The position numbers and the translations under genes are program-made. 64,000 nt of DNA from an uncultured Clostridia bacterium. Lineage in GTDB: Bacteria; Bacillota; Clostridia; Christensenellales; UBA1242. Shown here piece by piece: positions 3,406 through 46,945 of this stretch (position 1 is the stretch's first letter; every line of letters starts with the position of its first letter). Below the pieces are notes generated by a model that was given only the letters and a program-made list of their open reading frames with translations, made no database searches and had not been told where the DNA came from. Where the stretch lies: the NCBI GenBank assembly GCA_944332315.1, contig CALVJT010000021.1, positions 8,896 to 72,895 of the forward strand. The letters are read 5' to 3'.

Positions 3406-3443
3406 TCTCATTTTTTTTCTTTTTATAGAAAATTGACTTTATT

Positions 3444-3508
3444 CAAAATGTTGTGGGCAACTTCGTAAATAATAGATAATTAATACCCCAATATTGATTA
3501 TAGAATCT
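3444..3508 (+). repeat. intergenic repeat family R2, copy 1
   Basis: CAAAATGTTGTGGGCAA ... CCCCAATATTGATTATAGAATCT. Its reverse complement matches 20565-20638 block for block. Confidence 0.7.
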
Positions 3509-5690: not shown

Positions 5691-5790
5691 GGTTCTTTAT
5701 TATTTATGGTGTATATAAAGTTAAGGGTTCAAACCTTTGCTAAATATTTTCTGCTAAATATTTAACTAACCCCACGAATATTATAGAAAC
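5691..5790 (+). repeat. intergenic repeat family R1, copy 1 (~100 nt)
   Basis: GGTTCTTTATTATTTATGG...GGTTCAAACCTTTGCTAAA...GCTAAATATTTAACTAACCCCACGAATATTATAGAAAC. It aligns by eye with 16279-16378, 43933-44030, 46440-46532 (reverse) and more weakly with 20646-20731. Confidence 0.75.
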
Positions 5791-5940
5791 ACAATAAAAA
5801 GCTTTTTGTTAAAAGGTAGATTGTTTGCGACGAGCGGGCGATAGTGATTTTTACAATTTTGCTACAATATTCCTAGGGAACGATACAAACTACCGACTAA
5901 ACCATTAGTTGTGATTTGGCTATTAATTCTAAATTCTTGA

Positions 5941-5965
5941 AAAGGGAGTATTTAATACTCCCTTT
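5941..5965 (-). terminator. hairpin terminator downstream of the GDPD gene
   Basis: AAAGGGAGTA / TACTCCCTTT stem (10 bp), loop TTTAA. The U-run on the minus strand is short (CCCUUUUC). Confidence 0.5.
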
Positions 5966-5995
5966 GTGTTTATTTGTAGTTTAAGATATTAAATT

Positions 5996-10267: not shown

Positions 10268-10445
10268 GCCAAAACTGTATTTTATTTTTTATAATAGTTT
10301 GTAAAAGAATATGCATTTTTGGATAAACAAACAAAATTACTGCACTAGCTTCGTATAGCTGTGCCAATTAATAAATATTATAATACACCTTATAAAGGGT
10401 ATTTTATAAATATAATACACAACATATAGATATTGGGAGTAGAAT

Positions 10446-11950: not shown

Positions 11951-12754
11951 ATGGAATGGTATATGTTTGTGGTGCTGGGGCTCGAAGTTTTGGCATCATA
12001 CTTTTTTGGCAATATAAGTGTTGCTAGAATAATTTCCAAAATAAAAAAGGGTGATATTACAAAAGTGGGCAGTGGCAACCCAGGGTCGACCAATATGCTG
12101 AGGGCGTATGGAGCAAAACTTGGCTTTTTGACATTGCTACTAGATATTATAAAAGGTGTTTTGCCCGCTTTGATGGGGTACCTAACTTTTATGTTTGTAG
12201 ATGACGGCAACTTTATGCTTGTGGGCTTATATGCCTGTGGGCTAGGTGCCGTTGTGGGACATATGTTTCCTGTGTGTTATAAATTTAAGGGCGGTAAAGG
12301 GGTAGCCACCACACTAGGGGTGTTTGCCGTTGCCGACCCGCTGATAATGTTGTTTGTATTTGTAGGCGCGTTTATATATGTAATATTTTTTGAATATGTG
12401 TCAGTGGCATCACTACTGCTTGTAACAGCAATGGCAATAGTAGAGGTTTATAAAATACCCGAAGGTTTGCCAAGTGGGGTATCACTCACCATTCGAGTGC
12501 TTATATTTGTACTGTTTACACTTGTGTGGTTTGCGCATAGACAAAACATACAACGCCTGCTTGTAGGCAAAGAAAATAAAGCCAACCTTAAAAAAGCCTT
12601 GCGCAAAATGCTAAAACAAGAGAAAAAAGAGCAAAAACAACAAAAGAAAATTGAACATAAAGAATTAAAAGCAATTAAAAAGCAAAAGAAAAAGCTCAAA
12701 AAGCATAGAGCCTCATTGATTGTATCTCATGAATATAAGGGCATAAATCATTAA
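11951..12754 (+). CDS. plsY: glycerol-3-phosphate acyltransferase PlsY with a ~65-aa Lys-rich C-terminal extension
   Basis: GSGNPGSTN and the FKGGKGVAT motifs with multiple TM helices. The tail KENKANLKKALRKMLKQEKKEQKQQKKIEHKELKAIKKQKKKLKKH lies beyond the usual ~200-aa PlsY core. Confidence 0.85.
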   Translation: MEWYMFVVLGLEVLASYFFGNISVARIISKIKKGDITKVGSGNPGSTNMLRAYGAKLGFLTLLLDIIKGVLPALMGYLTFMFVDDGNFMLVGLYACGLGAVVGHMFPVCYKFKGGKGVATTLGVFAVADPLIMLFVFVGAFIYVIFFEYVSVASLLLVTAMAIVEVYKIPEGLPSGVSLTIRVLIFVLFTLVWFAHRQNIQRLLVGKENKANLKKALRKMLKQEKKEQKQQKKIEHKELKAIKKQKKKLKKHRASLIVSHEYKGINH

Positions 12755-12960: not shown

Positions 12961-15900
12961 TTGCCAAATGTAAATGCGGGGTACAATATTAATGAATCGG
13001 GGGATATTAGTACTTATAAAAATCAAAGAGCGGGCAAACTTTTATGCGAGCAATTAAACATAAAAACTAGCAACTCTAAAACACAAGATACGCATACAAA
13101 ATCTTATATTACAAGCGCAAAGCGTATAAAAAGCAATAAAAATAGAAATAGTAATATAGGTGATAGTATGCAAAATAGAATAAATAATAAAGATACCAAA
13201 AATTTAATAAATAATCGAGCAACAAATAAAGCAAGGTATGCAAATATAAAAGTTGCACCGCTGCAAAAATCTGCACTACAAAGAGTAATGTGGCTTTTGG
13301 CATTTATAACTTTGTTCGTATTGGCTCTGCAACCCGTGCTGCAAAATAGGGGCAATATAGCACAGGCAGGTGGACCAACCAGCGGAACAGGTTATACCAA
13401 TGCTCCTGCTACACAGGTAGGCGGTGGTAAAGCGTTGTTTATAGCCAACAATTCAACAGACAGTTCGGAACAAAGCTATAAATCATTAGGAATAAATCCA
13501 AATGTTTTATTTGATTTATTCGAAAAAATAAATGATGAAAGTGTTTGGGGGAATAAAGAAGTATTAAGTAGTGGAGTTACCTATTTAAGCGCTAAAGATT
13601 TTGGACAATATGATCCAAACACAAACAATGCGCAAATAATACTAAAGCTATTAGGTAGCACAAGCACCACTGACAATGATGTAGATGATGCGGCAAACCA
13701 ATACTGGCAAGTTGTATACCGCAGTGTGAGCAAGGATGAGGATGTACTAACACTATATATGACGCAACCATATAAAACTTCGGTTTTTGAAACAAATTAT
13801 TACGAAGGCAATTATAGCGTTAGCAATATAAGAACGGCAATACAAAACACATATTCAAAAATGGCAGAAACATACTCGGTACTAGATGAATATGTAGTAG
13901 CGCCATACCAACTATCCTCAAGTACAGCATCCGAAATACAAAATTCAAAAAATGCAGATTTACAAGGTAAAACAGACTTTTTGAACCTAGGTGGCTGGCA
14001 AAGCAGTGCATACCAAACATCTGCAAACAGCAATGGTGAATATTATAATGGCACAGGATTTAATAGCGGAACAACTACTTATGGAGACCATGCTTTAGGC
14101 TCAAGTGGTTACGGCAGTGATACAAATACAGAATTGGGCACAGTTTATAACTTAGGCAATGGGCTTGATGGTTTAAGCGTGAAGTACAAGGATCGTGGCT
14201 ATGAATGGGAAAGTGAATTTACAAGCGCATACAATGATAAGATGTGGCTACCAAGTGCATTTGAGGTGCTCTACACAGGATACGCGGGGGAATCACATAG
14301 CACATTACCTGGCACAGAAAGGGGATATGATGGAGATACTAATACTGAATCGTATGTAGATGATCCTTCTAGCGCAGGTGCAACACTTAATGTCCGTAGT
14401 CGTTCAGGGCTCTGGGAACTAAATGGTTACGATAGAGCTTGGGGTGATACATCCGTGGTGGGGGACTGGGCGTGGCTGCGTTCCGGCGTTTCCGGTTACA
14501 ATAGTTGCGCGTGCTCTATCGACTGGCGTGGTTCCTACAGCCCTTACGCTGTCAACGGTAATAACGGGTTGCGGGTTGCGCTCCATCTCAACCTTAAGGA
14601 ACTTGCAAACGCCGTGTTTGCAAGTGTATCTGCTGACGCGTCAGCGGGCAGCGTTGGCTCCCCAAGCGTAAGCTTCCCCGATAGGGGATGGGAGCCAACC
14701 ATCGAAAGTAAATATTCCAATTTAATAATAAAAAACTCTTCGGAATCTTCGATTTCTGCAACATATTCTTTTAATACTAATAAAAAAATGACCTCTTTTA
14801 CACTCAATGGAGAGCCAGTTACAGTGAGTGGCAATTCTGGTAGAGGGTCAGTTAGTGGGGTATGCGATTATAGTTATCAAGTGGGTAGCGGAAATGTAGT
14901 AATTACAATCAGCAATGCCTCGCAAAATGTAAATATTGAGGCACAAATTGATGATGCGGGTTATGCATTGACATTTGATTATGAAACAAATGGTGGAACT
15001 AGCACAACTGCTACAAACGGCATATATGTACAAGGGGCAACCGTTGACCTATCAAATATGCAAGCCGACAAAGGTAATGGCTGGGAATTTGAGGGCTGGA
15101 GTGAAAACCCAAATGCACACAGTGGCAGCATAACAACTTTTCAAATGCCGGGGCAGGCAACCACATTGTATGCAATATTTTCAAAAACCTTAACCGCAAG
15201 TTTTTATCAAATAAACACATCTAGTGCAGAGACTAGGGATGTGACAATTTATAATACAGCTACAAATGGCAATATCATTGATATTCCAGTGGTAAACACA
15301 TCGCTATCCATAGCGGGTGCAACTAATATAACAGCAGTTGGATGGGTAAAAGATGATTCACTCGAAGATACAACTGGTGGTATTACGATAAGTGAGGATG
15401 TAGCGTACTATGCGCGGGTTAATTACACTATAACTATCACATACAACGGCAATGGTGGCAGTGTAAGTCAAGCAAGCAGTACGGGCACAGTTACTATGAC
15501 TGCAAATGGACAAGCAACTGGAGCCACTCCAACAAATGCGCAGATACCTCTTGCAAACAACACAACACCACGACCAAACTACACATTTGTTGGTTGGAAC
15601 TCAAATAGCGGAGGAACAGGCACATCATACACTGCAGGGGAAAGCTACAGCTTTAGTGCAAGTACAACGCTTTATGCTGTGTGGGATAAAACCACAACTA
15701 CAGCTCAACTGACAATAACGCTAGCAACACCGAGCGAGGCTGGAGTTATAATTTATCTTGTGCAAGACAACAAGGTGGCAAAGCAGTTTGTAGTGATGGG
15801 GGAAACAAAAACTATAAGTGTAGAACTAACCAAGGGAGCGGAATACAAAATAATAGTATCTAAGCCATATACATGGCAAGTAGAGTACACAGGTAATGGC

Positions 15901-16014
15901 AGTGTACAAAACGATAACTATGTATTCACGGCATCAAGCGCAGATGTTAGCGAGACTCAGTACACAATTACTGTAAGCGGTGGCAGTATACCAAACAATT
16001 GGTGGATAGTATAA
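12961..16014 (+). CDS. large membrane-anchored surface protein with Listeria-Bacteroides (Flg_new-type) repeats; the true 5' end is uncertain (ATG 12870 via frameshift at the G tract, or internal ATG 13168)
   Basis: One TM/signal-anchor helix (VMWLLAFITLFVLALQPVL). There is a WLRS...GLRVALHLNL lectin-like module. Repeats such as YTLTFDYETNGGT...GWEFEGWSENPN...TLYAIF and ITYNGNGGS...YTFVGWNSNSGGTG...TLYAVW are present. The track start is a TTG without an SD. The frame is open back to 12895. Confidence 0.8.
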   Translation: MPNVNAGYNINESGDISTYKNQRAGKLLCEQLNIKTSNSKTQDTHTKSYITSAKRIKSNKNRNSNIGDSMQNRINNKDTKNLINNRATNKARYANIKVAPLQKSALQRVMWLLAFITLFVLALQPVLQNRGNIAQAGGPTSGTGYTNAPATQVGGGKALFIANNSTDSSEQSYKSLGINPNVLFDLFEKINDESVWGNKEVLSSGVTYLSAKDFGQYDPNTNNAQIILKLLGSTSTTDNDVDDAANQYWQVVYRSVSKDEDVLTLYMTQPYKTSVFETNYYEGNYSVSNIRTAIQNTYSKMAETYSVLDEYVVAPYQLSSSTASEIQNSKNADLQGKTDFLNLGGWQSSAYQTSANSNGEYYNGTGFNSGTTTYGDHALGSSGYGSDTNTELGTVYNLGNGLDGLSVKYKDRGYEWESEFTSAYNDKMWLPSAFEVLYTGYAGESHSTLPGTERGYDGDTNTESYVDDPSSAGATLNVRSRSGLWELNGYDRAWGDTSVVGDWAWLRSGVSGYNSCACSIDWRGSYSPYAVNGNNGLRVALHLNLKELANAVFASVSADASAGSVGSPSVSFPDRGWEPTIESKYSNLIIKNSSESSISATYSFNTNKKMTSFTLNGEPVTVSGNSGRGSVSGVCDYSYQVGSGNVVITISNASQNVNIEAQIDDAGYALTFDYETNGGTSTTATNGIYVQGATVDLSNMQADKGNGWEFEGWSENPNAHSGSITTFQMPGQATTLYAIFSKTLTASFYQINTSSAETRDVTIYNTATNGNIIDIPVVNTSLSIAGATNITAVGWVKDDSLEDTTGGITISEDVAYYARVNYTITITYNGNGGSVSQASSTGTVTMTANGQATGATPTNAQIPLANNTTPRPNYTFVGWNSNSGGTGTSYTAGESYSFSASTTLYAVWDKTTTTAQLTITLATPSEAGVIIYLVQDNKVAKQFVVMGETKTISVELTKGAEYKIIVSKPYTWQVEYTGNGSVQNDNYVFTASSADVSETQYTITVSGGSIPNNWWIV

Positions 16015-16233: not shown

Positions 16234-16268
16234 AAGACTACAAAGGGTGTATCCTTTGTAGTCTTTTT
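16234..16268 (+). terminator. rho-independent terminator, 220 nt after the surface-protein stop
   Basis: 13-bp stem AAGACTACAAAGG / CCTTTGTAGTCTT, loop GTGTAT, then TTTTT. Confidence 0.8.
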
Positions 16269-16278
16269 ATATATTCTT

Positions 16279-16378
16279 GTTCTTAATTTTAGTGGTGGAA
16301 TAGTATGTTATTAATTTAGATTTTTGCTAAACTCTTTATTCTAAATATTTAACTAACCCTATTGAATATAATAGAACC
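16279..16378 (+). repeat. intergenic repeat family R1, copy 2
   Basis: GTTCTTAATTTTAGTGGTGG...TTTTTGCTAAACTCTTTATTCTAAATATTTAACTAACCCTATTGAATATAATAGAAC. Confidence 0.65.
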
Positions 16379-16440
16379 TATAATATTCTTTATAATATGG
16401 GCTTAATAAGTTAGACATTAAATAGTTAAATTATTTTATG

Positions 16441-16518
16441 CAAAATGTTGGGTTATTGGCATAAATAATAGTTAAAGCTTAACTAAATTGCACTAACGGC
16501 CTAACTTGATTATAGAGT
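16441..16518 (+). repeat. intergenic repeat family R2, copy 2
   Basis: CAAAATGTTGGGTTATTGGCATAAATAATAG...CTTGATTATAGAGT. It has the same end blocks as 3444-3508 with a longer middle. Confidence 0.55.
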
Positions 16519-16666
16519 TTTTGGTTATCTATAAAATTTAGGTGTGTAGTAGGTACATAAAAGCAATTATAGTTATTATAAGCATTTAATTATCTTACAT
16601 CTTTATAGTGGTAATATTAATTTTATATCCTCATTAAAACAATTATAATCTATTTTTGTGTTTTAA

Positions 16667-20352: not shown

Positions 20353-20476
20353 TTTTATTTAAGTTTAGCTTTATAAATTTGGGTGACATTGAATTTTATT
20401 AAAATATGCTTATTATAAATAATTATACATTATAAGCAAAACAGTCTAATTATCGAATTTAATTATTAGAATACGC

Positions 20477-20516
20477 AAAATATAGAGTATTATAAAAATA
20501 TAATACTCTATATTTT
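20477..20516 (+). terminator. long hairpin terminator after tkt
   Basis: 16-bp stem AAAATATAGAGTATTA / TAATACTCTATATTTT with an 8-nt loop. The U-run is partly inside the stem. Confidence 0.6.
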
Positions 20517-20564
20517 GTATTTATAAAAAATATGATACATCCATATATAAATATGTTTTTTATT

Positions 20565-20638
20565 AGATTCTATAATCAATATTGGGGTATTGATATAATT
20601 TAATTCTATTAAATATAATATTTGCCCCCAACATTTTG
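20565..20638 (-). repeat. intergenic repeat family R2, copy 3 (inverted relative to copies 1 and 2)
   Basis: AGATTCTATAATCAATATTGGGG...TTGCCCCCAACATTTTG is the reverse complement of the end blocks of 3444-3508, with 1 mismatch in the second block. Confidence 0.7.
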
Positions 20639-20645
20639 CATAGAA

Positions 20646-20731
20646 TCTTTTATTATTAATGTTACATAGTGGTTTATAAATCAGGCTTTTGCTAAGCTCT
20701 TTATGCTACCTACATGCAAATATTATAGAAC
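20646..20731 (+). repeat. diverged R1-like repeat
   Basis: TCTTTTATTATTAATG...GGCTTTTGCTAAGCTCTTTATGCTA...AATATTATAGAAC. It shares the TTTGCTAA and ATATTATAGAAC blocks but lacks the AATATTTAACTAAC core. Confidence 0.4.
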
Positions 20732-20843
20732 TTAAAATATTAAACGCTTATTTATATATTTGCAAATTAAAATTGCACCATAATTATAAAATTTAGATAG
20801 TTAATTTGTTTAATATTTACAAAAATTTATGGGTAAAATCTTT

Positions 20844-37921: not shown

Positions 37922-38770
37922 ATGAATGGAATAGTAAATTTATATAAGCCATCAAATATGTCAAGTAATACTGCTTGTAGAAAGGTAGGTAAAATATTAG
38001 GCGAAAAAAAGGTCGGTCATCTAGGAACATTAGACCCTTTAGCTGAGGGCGTTTTGCCGGTTACATTGGGTAAATGCACAAAACTATTTGACTATTACTT
38101 GCAAAAAGATAAAGCGTACATTGCCGATTTTACTTTTGGTGAGGAAACTGACACGCTAGATGCGGAAGGGGAAATAATTGATAAATGCAATTTGATTCCA
38201 AAAGCTGATGAAATAGAAAATGTATTGCCATATTTTATTGGAGAGCAAGAGCAAGTACCACCAAGATATTCGGCTAAAAAATTGGGGGGAGTAAGAGCTT
38301 ACGATTTGGCAAGAAACAACAAAGATTTTGAACTGAAGCCAAAGTTAATCCACATTTACAATTTAAAATTATTAAAACAGATAAACAATACAACGTTTAG
38401 ATTTTTAATTGAGTGCTCATCCGGCACATACATTAGAAGCATTGCTAGAGATTTGGCATACAAGGTAAATTCTTTGGCTTATATGAGCTACTTACAGCGT
38501 ACAAAATGTGGGGATTTTTGTATCGAAAATTCTGTAAATTTTAATAATATCACCGAAAACTCAGTTATAACTATAGATGAACTTTTTAGAAATATTGACA
38601 AAATCGAGATTCTATTGCAAGATGAATATAAATTATTTTTGAACAGCAGTAGAGTTAGGGTTATGGATGATACAAAAGCGGGGAATGCTGTACTCACATA
38701 TAAAGATAAAATAATTTCGTTTGGCATACTAGATAATGGGTATTTTATAAGTAAAATACGCTTTATATAG
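37922..38770 (+). CDS. truB: tRNA pseudouridine(55) synthase TruB
   Basis: GIVNLYKPSNMSSN...KVGHLGTLDPLAEGVLPV (catalytic Asp motif). Confidence 0.9.
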   Translation: MNGIVNLYKPSNMSSNTACRKVGKILGEKKVGHLGTLDPLAEGVLPVTLGKCTKLFDYYLQKDKAYIADFTFGEETDTLDAEGEIIDKCNLIPKADEIENVLPYFIGEQEQVPPRYSAKKLGGVRAYDLARNNKDFELKPKLIHIYNLKLLKQINNTTFRFLIECSSGTYIRSIARDLAYKVNSLAYMSYLQRTKCGDFCIENSVNFNNITENSVITIDELFRNIDKIEILLQDEYKLFLNSSRVRVMDDTKAGNAVLTYKDKIISFGILDNGYFISKIRFI

Positions 38771-43595: not shown

Positions 43596-43932
43596 GCCCC
43601 ACACATTTTTTAATATTATTTTTTGCTAATGTTTTGTAAATTAAAAAAGGGTCTTATGAGTGTTTTGATGTTTTGAATATATTATATGATTTGTAATAAA
43701 TTAATTCTTATCGACATTAATAATGATAGTATATCTTAAAAAACTAGCAATATTTTTTGCTTGTTTTTTATGTTTTAATTACGGGGGTAGGTTAGTTATT
43801 GATAGCGTTTATCAATAACTTATAATTAGTTTTAGATATATTTTGGTCTGTTTTAGTATACTCTTACCAAATGAAATTAGAGTTAGGGGAACTTAGCGTG
43901 TAAAGTATATAATTCTTTTAGCATATTTATTG

Positions 43933-44030
43933 GGTTCTTTATTAATTAGGGGTTTGTAGTTATAGGTTCAAATTTTTGCTAAACTCTTTTTGCTTAATAT
44001 TTAACTAACTCTATGAATATTATGATATTA
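43933..44030 (+). repeat. intergenic repeat family R1, copy 3
   Basis: GGTTCTTTATTAATTAGGGG...GGTTCAAATTTTTGCTAAACTCTTTTTGCTTAATATTTAACTAACTCTATGAATATTATGATATT. Confidence 0.75.
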
Positions 44031-46255: not shown

Positions 46256-46439
46256 TTTAATATGTTTTAACAAAATAAATAGTAGTTCTATTTAGCATGG
46301 TGCAGTTAAATATAAAAAAATATCAAGCTATTGCGCGCTCTAAAATGACTAAAAGTTATTGGTTAAAATTGTCAATAGAGCCTAAAAATGTTTGTTGATG
46401 TTAAGATTGCATGTTCCAACATATTGAATAGAATTAAAA

Positions 46440-46532
46440 ATGTTCGTGGGGGGTTAATTAAATATTTTGCATAAGGAACTTAAGCAAAAGTTTGAATTCT
46501 TAACTTCTATGTCCCCATAATAATAAAGAACC
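46440..46532 (-). repeat. intergenic repeat family R1, copy 4 (inverted)
   Basis: Reverse complement: GGTTCTTTATTATTATGGGG...AATTCAAACTTTTGCTTAAG...AAAATATTTAATTAACCCCCCACGAAC. Confidence 0.7.
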
Positions 46533-46539
46533 TAAAAAA

Positions 46540-46584
46540 AATAACACGCCACCTCCTAACTTAATAGGAGAAAGGCGTGTTATT
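46540..46584 (-). terminator. terminator hairpin overlapping the TSCPD gene stop codon
   Basis: 11-bp stem AATAACACGCC / GGCGTGTTATT around a 23-nt loop with an inner CTCCT/AGGAG stem. T-runs on both strands. Confidence 0.65.
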
Positions 46585-46945
46585 TTTTGCTTTGTATAGA
46601 TAATCCTAAACTTGTGATAGGAGGTTTTCTTTTAGAATGTAGTTGAGTGATATCCACTCCGCTATGTACTAAAATAGCTTCGTTGAGTGCTTTAGATAAT
46701 TCCATAGCGCAGGAAGTATTATTTTTGCAAACGCCCAAATTTTCGAGTTCCGAAACTACATCTTTTGCTTTACGGTTTTTGATAATGCAGTTAAGAGTAG
46801 AAATCATGCCTTTGCATCCATCTCCAAGAGTGCGAACATCTCGGCAGATTAAATCATTGTTTTCATCGACATCAAAATTAATAACAAATTGAGTATAACA
46901 AATACCTTGTGGCTTATAAGATTGTGGTTTACTTCTTGTTGTCAT
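46580..46945 (-). CDS. TSCPD-domain protein (TIGR03905-like)
   Basis: KPQGICYTQFVINFDV...LGDGCKG...VCKNNTSCAMELSKALNEAI follows the G-C...GGC-G...TSC-D-L pattern of the family, with the Pro replaced. SD AGGAGG. Confidence 0.6.
   Translation of the reverse strand: MTTRSKPQSYKPQGICYTQFVINFDVDENNDLICRDVRTLGDGCKGMISTLNCIIKNRKAKDVVSELENLGVCKNNTSCAMELSKALNEAILVHSGVDITQLHSKRKPPITSLGLSIQSKK

Follow-up and report, generated by a model that had tools for sequence, protein, structure and literature searches.

Short sequences of about 100 bp recur between the genes of the DNA studied here, and the question that they raise is what kind of sequence they are. The window (the whole 64-kb stretch that was analysed) encodes SpoIVA, ribosomal protein S9, transketolase and GyrB, and comes from a spore-forming, Clostridia-type organism. 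An earlier note on this DNA described a dispersed repeat, here called R1, and proposed that it is either a family of non-autonomous, MITE-like elements or a conserved small-RNA or protein-binding module.

R1 copies in the window

R1 is present in the window as five homologous intergenic copies of about 100 bp, which are given here in the order of their positions:

5691-5790, plus strand, R1 copy 1, 100 bp, both termini retained
16278-16378, plus strand, R1 copy 2, 101 bp
20646-20732, plus strand, R1 copy 5, 87 bp, most diverged of the five
43933-44029, plus strand, R1 copy 3, 97 bp
46431-46532, minus strand, R1 copy 4, 102 bp

The earlier note had placed five copies at these positions, and their limits have moved by a few bases at most. 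Its description of R1 as strictly intergenic and free of ORFs also holds, with all five copies lying between ORFs. The similarity was confirmed using nhmmer: a profile made from copies 1 to 4 recovers those same four at E-values of 1e-24 to 1e-32 (1.2e-32 for copy 1, 1.2e-24 for copy 2, 5e-28 for copy 3 and 1.8e-27 for copy 4). The same profile detects copy 5, which is absent from the model, at 5.8e-7 over 20649-20745, and it finds no further window position below E ~1. A flank-free profile that includes copies from other strains scores the five copies at 1e-14 to 1e-22 overall (3.3e-22, 1e-16, 1.2e-16 and 1.4e-22 for copies 1 to 4, respectively, and 3.8e-14 for copy 5 with the flank-free core profile) and gives no sixth window match below E = 2. 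An inverted R1 fragment that had been thought possible at 43775-43800 is not supported, as nhmmer finds no match there even at E <= 50. The three-block pattern GTTCTT..TTTGCT..ATATTTAAYTAA matches the window four times, against 0.00 matches expected from 100 dinucleotide shuffles. Pairwise identity among the window copies is only 59-78%, and the copies are therefore old.

With 33.8% G+C in the window and an A/T-rich repeat, the similarity could be suspected to be mere A/T low complexity or chance, and pattern scans of large sequence collections did return chance matches only, in unrelated taxa (see below). This explanation, however, retains almost no probability. The nhmmer E-values reach 1e-32, copy 5 was recovered independently of the model, and the three-block pattern is found far beyond expectation; in addition, other strains carry R1 with identical boundaries, and the ends of R1 match those of an insertion sequence (IS). 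Chance and low complexity are excluded because of the E-values together with the shared, sharply bounded ends of R1.

Genomic context of the copies

Most copies are found close to transcription terminators. Copy 1 starts ~20 nt past the rplM-rpsI terminator, and copy 2 lies 12 nt past the terminator (16234-16265) of an ORF for a 1017-aa surface protein and 340 nt upstream of spoIVA. Copy 3 adjoins the terminator of a minus-strand tRNA-Glu gene, and copy 4 is found 2 nt past the terminator T-tract of a gene for a TSCPD-domain protein (46580-46945, minus strand). Copy 5 is located in the spacer between tkt and gyrB, where its left end abuts a shorter element at 20566-20647 (described below). The orientation of R1 is that of the upstream gene in all five window copies (p ~0.06). 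For three of the five, the flanking genes are convergent, which disfavours R1 as the promoter of a downstream gene.

Two of these loci have further features of their own. The ORF for the 1017-aa protein (12961-16014, plus strand) contains a Listeria-Bacteroides repeat (Flg_new), an InlB-like B-repeat and DUF6273 domains and is located, together with R1 copy 2, between a PlsY-like gene (11951-12754) and spoIVA. In two relatives (L040 and L045), spoIVA comes immediately after a PlsY-family gene (PF02660); the PlsY-spoIVA interval is a site at which the insertion of surface-protein genes varies. A non-coding stretch of ~170 nt (5800-5970, plus strand), located in the interval from R1 copy 1 to the GDPD gene, is well conserved among strains. 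It contains two hairpins (5820-5842 and 5941-5965) and has a weak DapZ-like match of 29 bits, below the gathering score of 56. This stretch might represent a small RNA or, for the GDPD gene, its 3′ UTR together with a bidirectional terminator.

Terminal inverted repeats and internal blocks

The R1 consensus, GGTTCTTTATTATTATGGGGGTATAGAAGTTAAAGATTCAAACTTTTGCTAAGTTCTTTATGCTAAATATTTAACTAACCCCACGAATATTATAGAACC, begins with GGTTCTTTATTATTATGGGGGT and terminates with ACCCCACGAATATTATAGAACC. The absence of obvious terminal inverted repeats (TIRs) reported in the earlier note was a mistake: the consensus has imperfect TIRs of ~22 bp, whose two arms can be aligned starting at base 1 (GGTTCT...TGGGG), and only 4 of 2000 shuffles gave an equal score. 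The TIR pattern matches the window seven times, with 0.59 matches expected. Agreement between the two TIRs of a copy is 14-16 of 22 positions in copies 1, 2 and 5 and 9 of 22 in copies 3 and 4. The TIRs of copy 1 are as follows:

5691-5712, left TIR of copy 1, GGTTCTTTATTATTTATGGTGT
5769-5790, right TIR of copy 1, reverse complement GTTTCTATAATATTCGTGGGGT

The 8-mers that flank copy 1, ATAATAAA and ACAATAAA, agree at seven of eight positions and are a candidate target-site duplication. The remaining copies have decayed to different extents. In copy 2, the left terminus is mutated to TGTTCT and the right terminus (...AATAGAACC) is intact, with 15 of 22 TIR positions in agreement. The left TIR is intact in both copies 3 and 4; the right terminus of copy 3 is degraded (…GAATATTATGATATT), and that of copy 4 is degraded in the window and intact in the strain contig L069 (…CCCCACGAATATTATAGAACC). 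Copy 5, which terminates with ...ATATTATAGAACT, has a 12-nt internal deletion that takes out the AATATTTAACTAAC block. A 3′ hairpin of copy 2, GAATATAATAG-AAC-CTATAATATTC, was considered as a feature of R1 and rejected: it extends past the R1 boundary into flanking DNA, and most copies do not have it.

Inside R1, the earlier note had pointed to a core palindrome of A/T bases, TAAATATTTA. Such a 10-bp palindrome does exist, exactly, in window copies 1 and 2, but conservation does not extend to the other window copies or to the strain copies. The palindrome is nevertheless the natural centre for a reading of R1 as a protein-binding or regulatory module, for example an operator or a site for a nucleoid protein, and copies 1-3 contain the surrounding AATATTTAACTAAC block exactly and copy 4 almost exactly. 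Other copies of the same species, however, read TAAATTTTTG (L060a), TAAGTGTTTAG (L060b) or TTAATTTTTGA (L069) at the position of the palindrome, and in window copy 5 the palindrome is wholly deleted. Conservation peaks away from it, at the termini and in the TTTGCTAA block, which are the best-conserved parts of R1. Moreover, the three copies between convergent genes have nothing downstream to regulate, and the number of R1 copies at one locus varies among strains. The regulatory-site reading fails because the palindrome is unconserved in same-species copies and deleted in copy 5, and we consider it highly improbable.

The partner insertion sequence

A possible source of the R1 termini was found in another strain. 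Contig L061 encodes an identical rpsI protein followed by a near-identical terminator and carries, downstream of rpsI, an R1 copy and then an IS. This partner IS occupies L061:1114-2475 (1362 bp), contains a single ORF, begins with GGTTCTATAATATTCGTGGGGGT and terminates with ...ACCCCCATTATTGACAAAGAGCC. The same two IS termini are found 1359-1362 bp apart in five contigs: L061, L074 (which encodes an identical transposase) and L075, L076 and L077 (which encode a transposase of 76% identity). All five left flanks differ, and similarity among the IS copies stops exactly at GGTTCT and GAGCC. Thus, with shared ends, differing flanks and a similarity that ceases exactly at these bases, the IS termini are genuine.

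The ORF encodes a transposase of 389 aa that scores 291.2 bits on the NCBIfam model NF033550, 'ISL3 family transposase' (cut-off 180), and matches the Pfam domain DDE_Tnp_ISL3 (PF01610) at E = 2.7e-64 with 217.7 bits; Zn_ribbon_ISL3 and HTH_Tnp_ISL3 (PF14690 and PF13542) are also above their cut-offs. Judged by these sequence models, the partner IS belongs to the ISL3 family. Members of this family, as described in ISfinder, are ~1.2-2.3 kb long, with imperfect inverted repeats (IRs) of ~15-39 bp and direct repeats of 8 bp. The length of the partner IS (1359-1362 bp) and its imperfect IRs of ~23 bp, which start with GG, fit this description. Its flanks display no clear duplication: L074 agrees at 6 of 8 positions, and the remaining contigs are likely to be chimeras of metagenome assembly.

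Among 72,556 plasmid records, the IS DNA has no match, and the best ISL3 transposases are ~30% identical to the one encoded here. The closest relatives of the transposase are unnamed metagenome proteins with 76-80% identity. By these comparisons, the partner is a divergent IS and not a named member of the ISL3 family. A tblastn search of the 64-kb window found no ISL3 transposase.

The ends of R1 correspond to those of the partner IS. When reverse-complemented, the right end of R1 agrees with the left end of the IS at 21 of 21 positions (0 of 2000 shuffles as good), and in copy 1 window positions 5770-5788 are identical to IS left-end bases 3-21 (19/19). The left ~40 nt of R1 match the right end of the IS at 32 of 40 positions (1 of 2000 shuffles as good). 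For the middle ~40 nt of R1, no detectable counterpart was found in the IS interior.

Polymorphism among strains and distribution among lineages

Other members of the species were sampled as 14 short contigs from other samples, which were retrieved by exact-protein look-ups (rpsI and the TSCPD protein); the R1 profile matches all 14 of them. The spacer between rpsI and the GDPD gene is 107-108 bp longer in L060, L062 and L065 than in the window. These three contigs carry an extra R1 copy within the T-tract of the rpsI terminator (L060:1480-1579), and the T-tract is uninterrupted in the window, L063 and L064, which thus represent the empty site. The search for empty sites in strains that the earlier note had suggested was therefore successful: R1 is polymorphic, filled or empty, at the rpsI terminator. 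The motif C-T(6-8)-G is found on both sides of this insert and once in the empty site, with a register that is off by 1-3 nt, and the rpsI-terminator polymorphism probably comes with a target duplication.

Target-site duplications, which the earlier note had also proposed to look for, could be recovered only in part. They are seen as the 7/8 agreement at copy 1 and as the duplicated T-run plus G at the polymorphic insert, but none is clear at the other copies. Clean 8-bp duplications are thus found at only one or two of ~6 independent insertions, and the rest are ambiguous or decayed. Copy 3 of the window is also found in the strain contig L066, and look-ups with its GNAT and PgsA neighbours added no further contig in which to compare it; copy 4 is found in all eight strain contigs that cover its locus. 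The DNA beyond the IS (L061:2476-2687) and the DNA beyond R1 copy 4 (L069:600-1072) are replaced by a common, different segment that reads …CTATATTTAATATTATARTG…ACAAGCGAAAAGGAGTGATGCTT…; this suggests that the IS or MITE was involved in a rearrangement, or that a cassette moves together with these elements.

Beyond the species, SpoIVA homologues form a small uncultured clade with 75-86% identity, and the next homologues are only ~63% identical. R1 and the R1-type terminal motif are absent from the syntenic loci of four relatives in this clade (L038-L047, 75-86% SpoIVA identity), and some of the relatives' spacers (rpsI-GDPD and tkt-gyrB in L045 and L040) are much shorter than those of the window. 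Because the syntenic loci of these four relatives do not carry R1, it is specific to the lineage and not a conserved functional module.

Scans of larger collections gave no R1 copy. In 185,579 species-representative genomes, among which the source species is evidently either not included or not within reach, the pattern TTTGCT-N14-17-AATATTTAAYTAAC gave 36 single matches in unrelated taxa, and none of the 36 is recognised by the R1 profile. The three-block pattern gave 12 matches in JGI metagenomes, all of them chance matches that the R1 profile rejects. Viral contigs scanned with the IS end and with the R1 pattern gave no match.

Structured RNA and terminators

Positions just past terminators, together with an orientation shared with the upstream gene in five of five copies, would also suit genes for small RNAs or a structured RNA module that acts in cis after terminators. 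In the minimum-free-energy folds of copies 1 and 2, the 5′ GGUUCU even pairs with the 3′ AGAAC, although this pairing of the ends is explained by the inheritance of TIRs from the IS. A conserved structure, however, did not emerge: RNAalifold predicts 0 consensus pairs over 10 distinct copies, a result that goes against the small-RNA option of the earlier note, and folds of single copies have z-scores of -0.5 to -1.8, indistinguishable from those of shuffles. Rfam has no match over R1 at the gathering threshold or at E <= 1. Promoter-like sites occur at the level of shuffles, and none recurs in register among the copies. The 3′ end is lost in two window copies, an internal stretch of 12 nt is deleted in a third, and R1 is absent from the sister species. 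An RNA module is, on this evidence, very unlikely.

The association with terminators could also have a different meaning. Four of the ~6 independent R1 insertions are in a terminator T-tract or at most 20 nt after it, and two independent insertions behind rpsI are no more than 20 bp apart. The constant co-orientation of R1 with the upstream gene is not what simple random insertion would predict, although five of five corresponds to only p ~0.06. It is conceivable, if improbable, that the ISL3 transposase and R1 actively target intrinsic terminators and that the retained copies have been co-opted as post-terminator modules instead of being neutral relics. If this were true, they might serve, for example, as transcription insulators or as determinants of 3′ ends.

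A shorter family of related elements

The window contains a second, shorter family with ISL3-type ends, to which the following copies are assigned:

20566-20647, plus strand, mini-MITE, 82 bp, second family, abuts R1 copy 5
3432-3507, minus strand, mini-MITE copy 2, 76 bp, between a plus-strand gene and tRNA-Lys
16433-16519, minus strand, tentative mini-MITE copy 3, nhmmer E = 0.0012 with a two-copy model

The copy at 20566-20647 is hardly more than two ISL3-type TIRs, GATTCTATAATCAATATTGGGGT ... CCCCCAACATTTTGCATAGAATC, with the TIR pattern at 20566-20587 (plus strand) and 20626-20647 (minus strand); its nhmmer E-value is 8.6e-21 with a mini-family model that includes this copy. At 3432-3507, 32 nt at one end share 97% identity with the copy at 20566, the TIR pattern is found at 3486-3507, and the other terminus is partly decayed; this copy is likewise part of the model that gives it an E-value of 6.3e-18. 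As a family, the mini-MITEs of ~76-82 bp consist of ~30 variable bases enclosed by the ISL3-type terminal repeats GATTCTATAATCAATATTGGGGT ... CCCCAACATTTTGCATAGAATC. The weak copy at 16433-16519 lies 55 nt downstream of R1 copy 2. Because two of the three mini-MITE copies adjoin R1 copies, insertion hot spots or end-targeted insertion are suggested.

Other short repeats were seen nearby and elsewhere in the window. The segment 59661-59706 is 75% complementary to the junction between the mini-MITE and R1 copy 5 and includes the TIR-like GATTCTATGTTAAATATTGGCG; neither the R1 profile nor the mini-MITE profile matches it, and it is possibly a further decayed element. A motif of ~40-54 nt (…ATAAAGGGTATTTTATAAATATAATAC…) is repeated at 10372-10429, 20460-20517 and 38733-38770 with 76-82% identity; in the tkt-gyrB spacer, one of its copies precedes the mini-MITE by ~50 nt.

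Origin and fate of R1

Taken together, these results make it highly probable (about 0.9) that R1 is a MITE: a non-coding, internally deleted derivative, ~100 bp long, of the 1362-bp ISL3-family IS of the same species. MITEs are well under ~600 bp and have no coding capacity; R1 is 87-102 bp long and lies between ORFs. It also has TIRs, ends homologous to those of an IS, multiple dispersed copies (five in 64 kb), and filled and empty sites. Between the two options raised at the outset, the non-autonomous, MITE-like element is thus upheld by TIRs that match an IS, by insertion polymorphism and by absence from the sister species, but the small-RNA or protein-binding module is not, as structure predictions, Rfam, promoter-like sites and the palindrome all failed to support it.

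As a MITE of this origin, R1 would have kept at its left end ~40 nt of the IS right end (GGTTCTTTATTATTATGGGGGTATAGAAGTTA...) and at its right end the outermost ~21 nt of the left end of the IS (...CCCCACGAATATTATAGAACC). An ISL3 transposase encoded by a full-length IS at another genomic location would bind both TIRs of R1 and could move it into AT-rich targets, typically the T-tract just past intrinsic terminators, and ~8 bp of the target would be duplicated upon insertion. Mobilisation in trans and a duplication of ~8 bp as the general rule are inferred here from the behaviour of ISs and MITEs that depend on DDE transposases.

We infer that R1 insertions in post-terminator DNA are neutral, and most window copies are probably fossil insertions in such neutral DNA, because they are old, two right termini are lost and the window contains no transposase gene. 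Several copies are probably also immobile, since copies 3 and 4 have no right terminus and copy 5 is internally deleted.

For annotation, the value of this assignment is that an unrecognised Clostridia repeat can be named as an ISL3-derived MITE and that its likely autonomous partner is identified. R1 explains length polymorphism among strains, as well as breaks around rpsI and elsewhere when the species is assembled from metagenomes, and its insertions could act as strain markers. The finding raises no new biological question.

Comparison with known systems

Several families of short, dispersed, intergenic, non-coding repeats are known in bacteria, including RUP of S. pneumoniae (related to IS630-Spn1), the Correia elements of Neisseria, and ERIC, REP and BOX. 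RUP and Correia elements possess TIRs and rely on a transposase that is provided in trans. The ends of R1, however, are of the ISL3 family and not of the IS630 or Correia type, and unlike BOX, R1 has no modular boxA/B/C structure. REP/BIME elements are defined by an imperfect palindrome of ~35-40 bp that forms a stable hairpin and by a RAYT (TnpA-REP) transposase. R1 was rejected as a member of this class: it has no conserved hairpin, and its transposase is a DDE enzyme of the ISL3 type instead of a Y1/RAYT enzyme.

The closest parallels are MITEs associated with ISL3-family ISs. In Methanosarcina acetivorans, a MITE related to ISMac21 (ISL3) is 179 bp long and present in six copies (PMC3852290). 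The table that describes it lists 22 and 7 for direct/inverted repeats, and 22 is taken here as the inverted repeat (PMC3852290). Like R1, this MITE shares its terminal repeats with an ISL3 partner, and the R1 TIRs of ~22 bp would be comparable in length. Unlike R1, it resides in an archaeal host, is longer and has no sequence similarity to R1.

In Microcystis aeruginosa, an ISL3-associated MITE is 187 nt long, the ends of both IS and MITE start with GGCTCTTCG, and direct repeats of 8 nt are present (PMC11448079). Like R1, it is short and non-coding, and its imperfect TIRs match those of ISL3-family IS copies in its own genome (PMC11448079). Compared with the Microcystis ends (GGCTCTTCG), the right end of the IS described here starts with GGCTCTTTG, and GGTTCT is the start of both R1 and the left end of this IS; past the first 6-8 terminal bases, the sequences of R1 and the Microcystis MITE are unrelated. 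R1 is also about half the size, clean 8-bp duplications are found at only some of its copies, and its host is an uncultured spore-forming member of the Clostridia and not a cyanobacterium. ISL3-derived MITEs have already been described, and R1 is of the same kind, smaller and in a different, uncultured host; the ~100-bp R1 and its ~80-bp sister family extend the short list of such elements.
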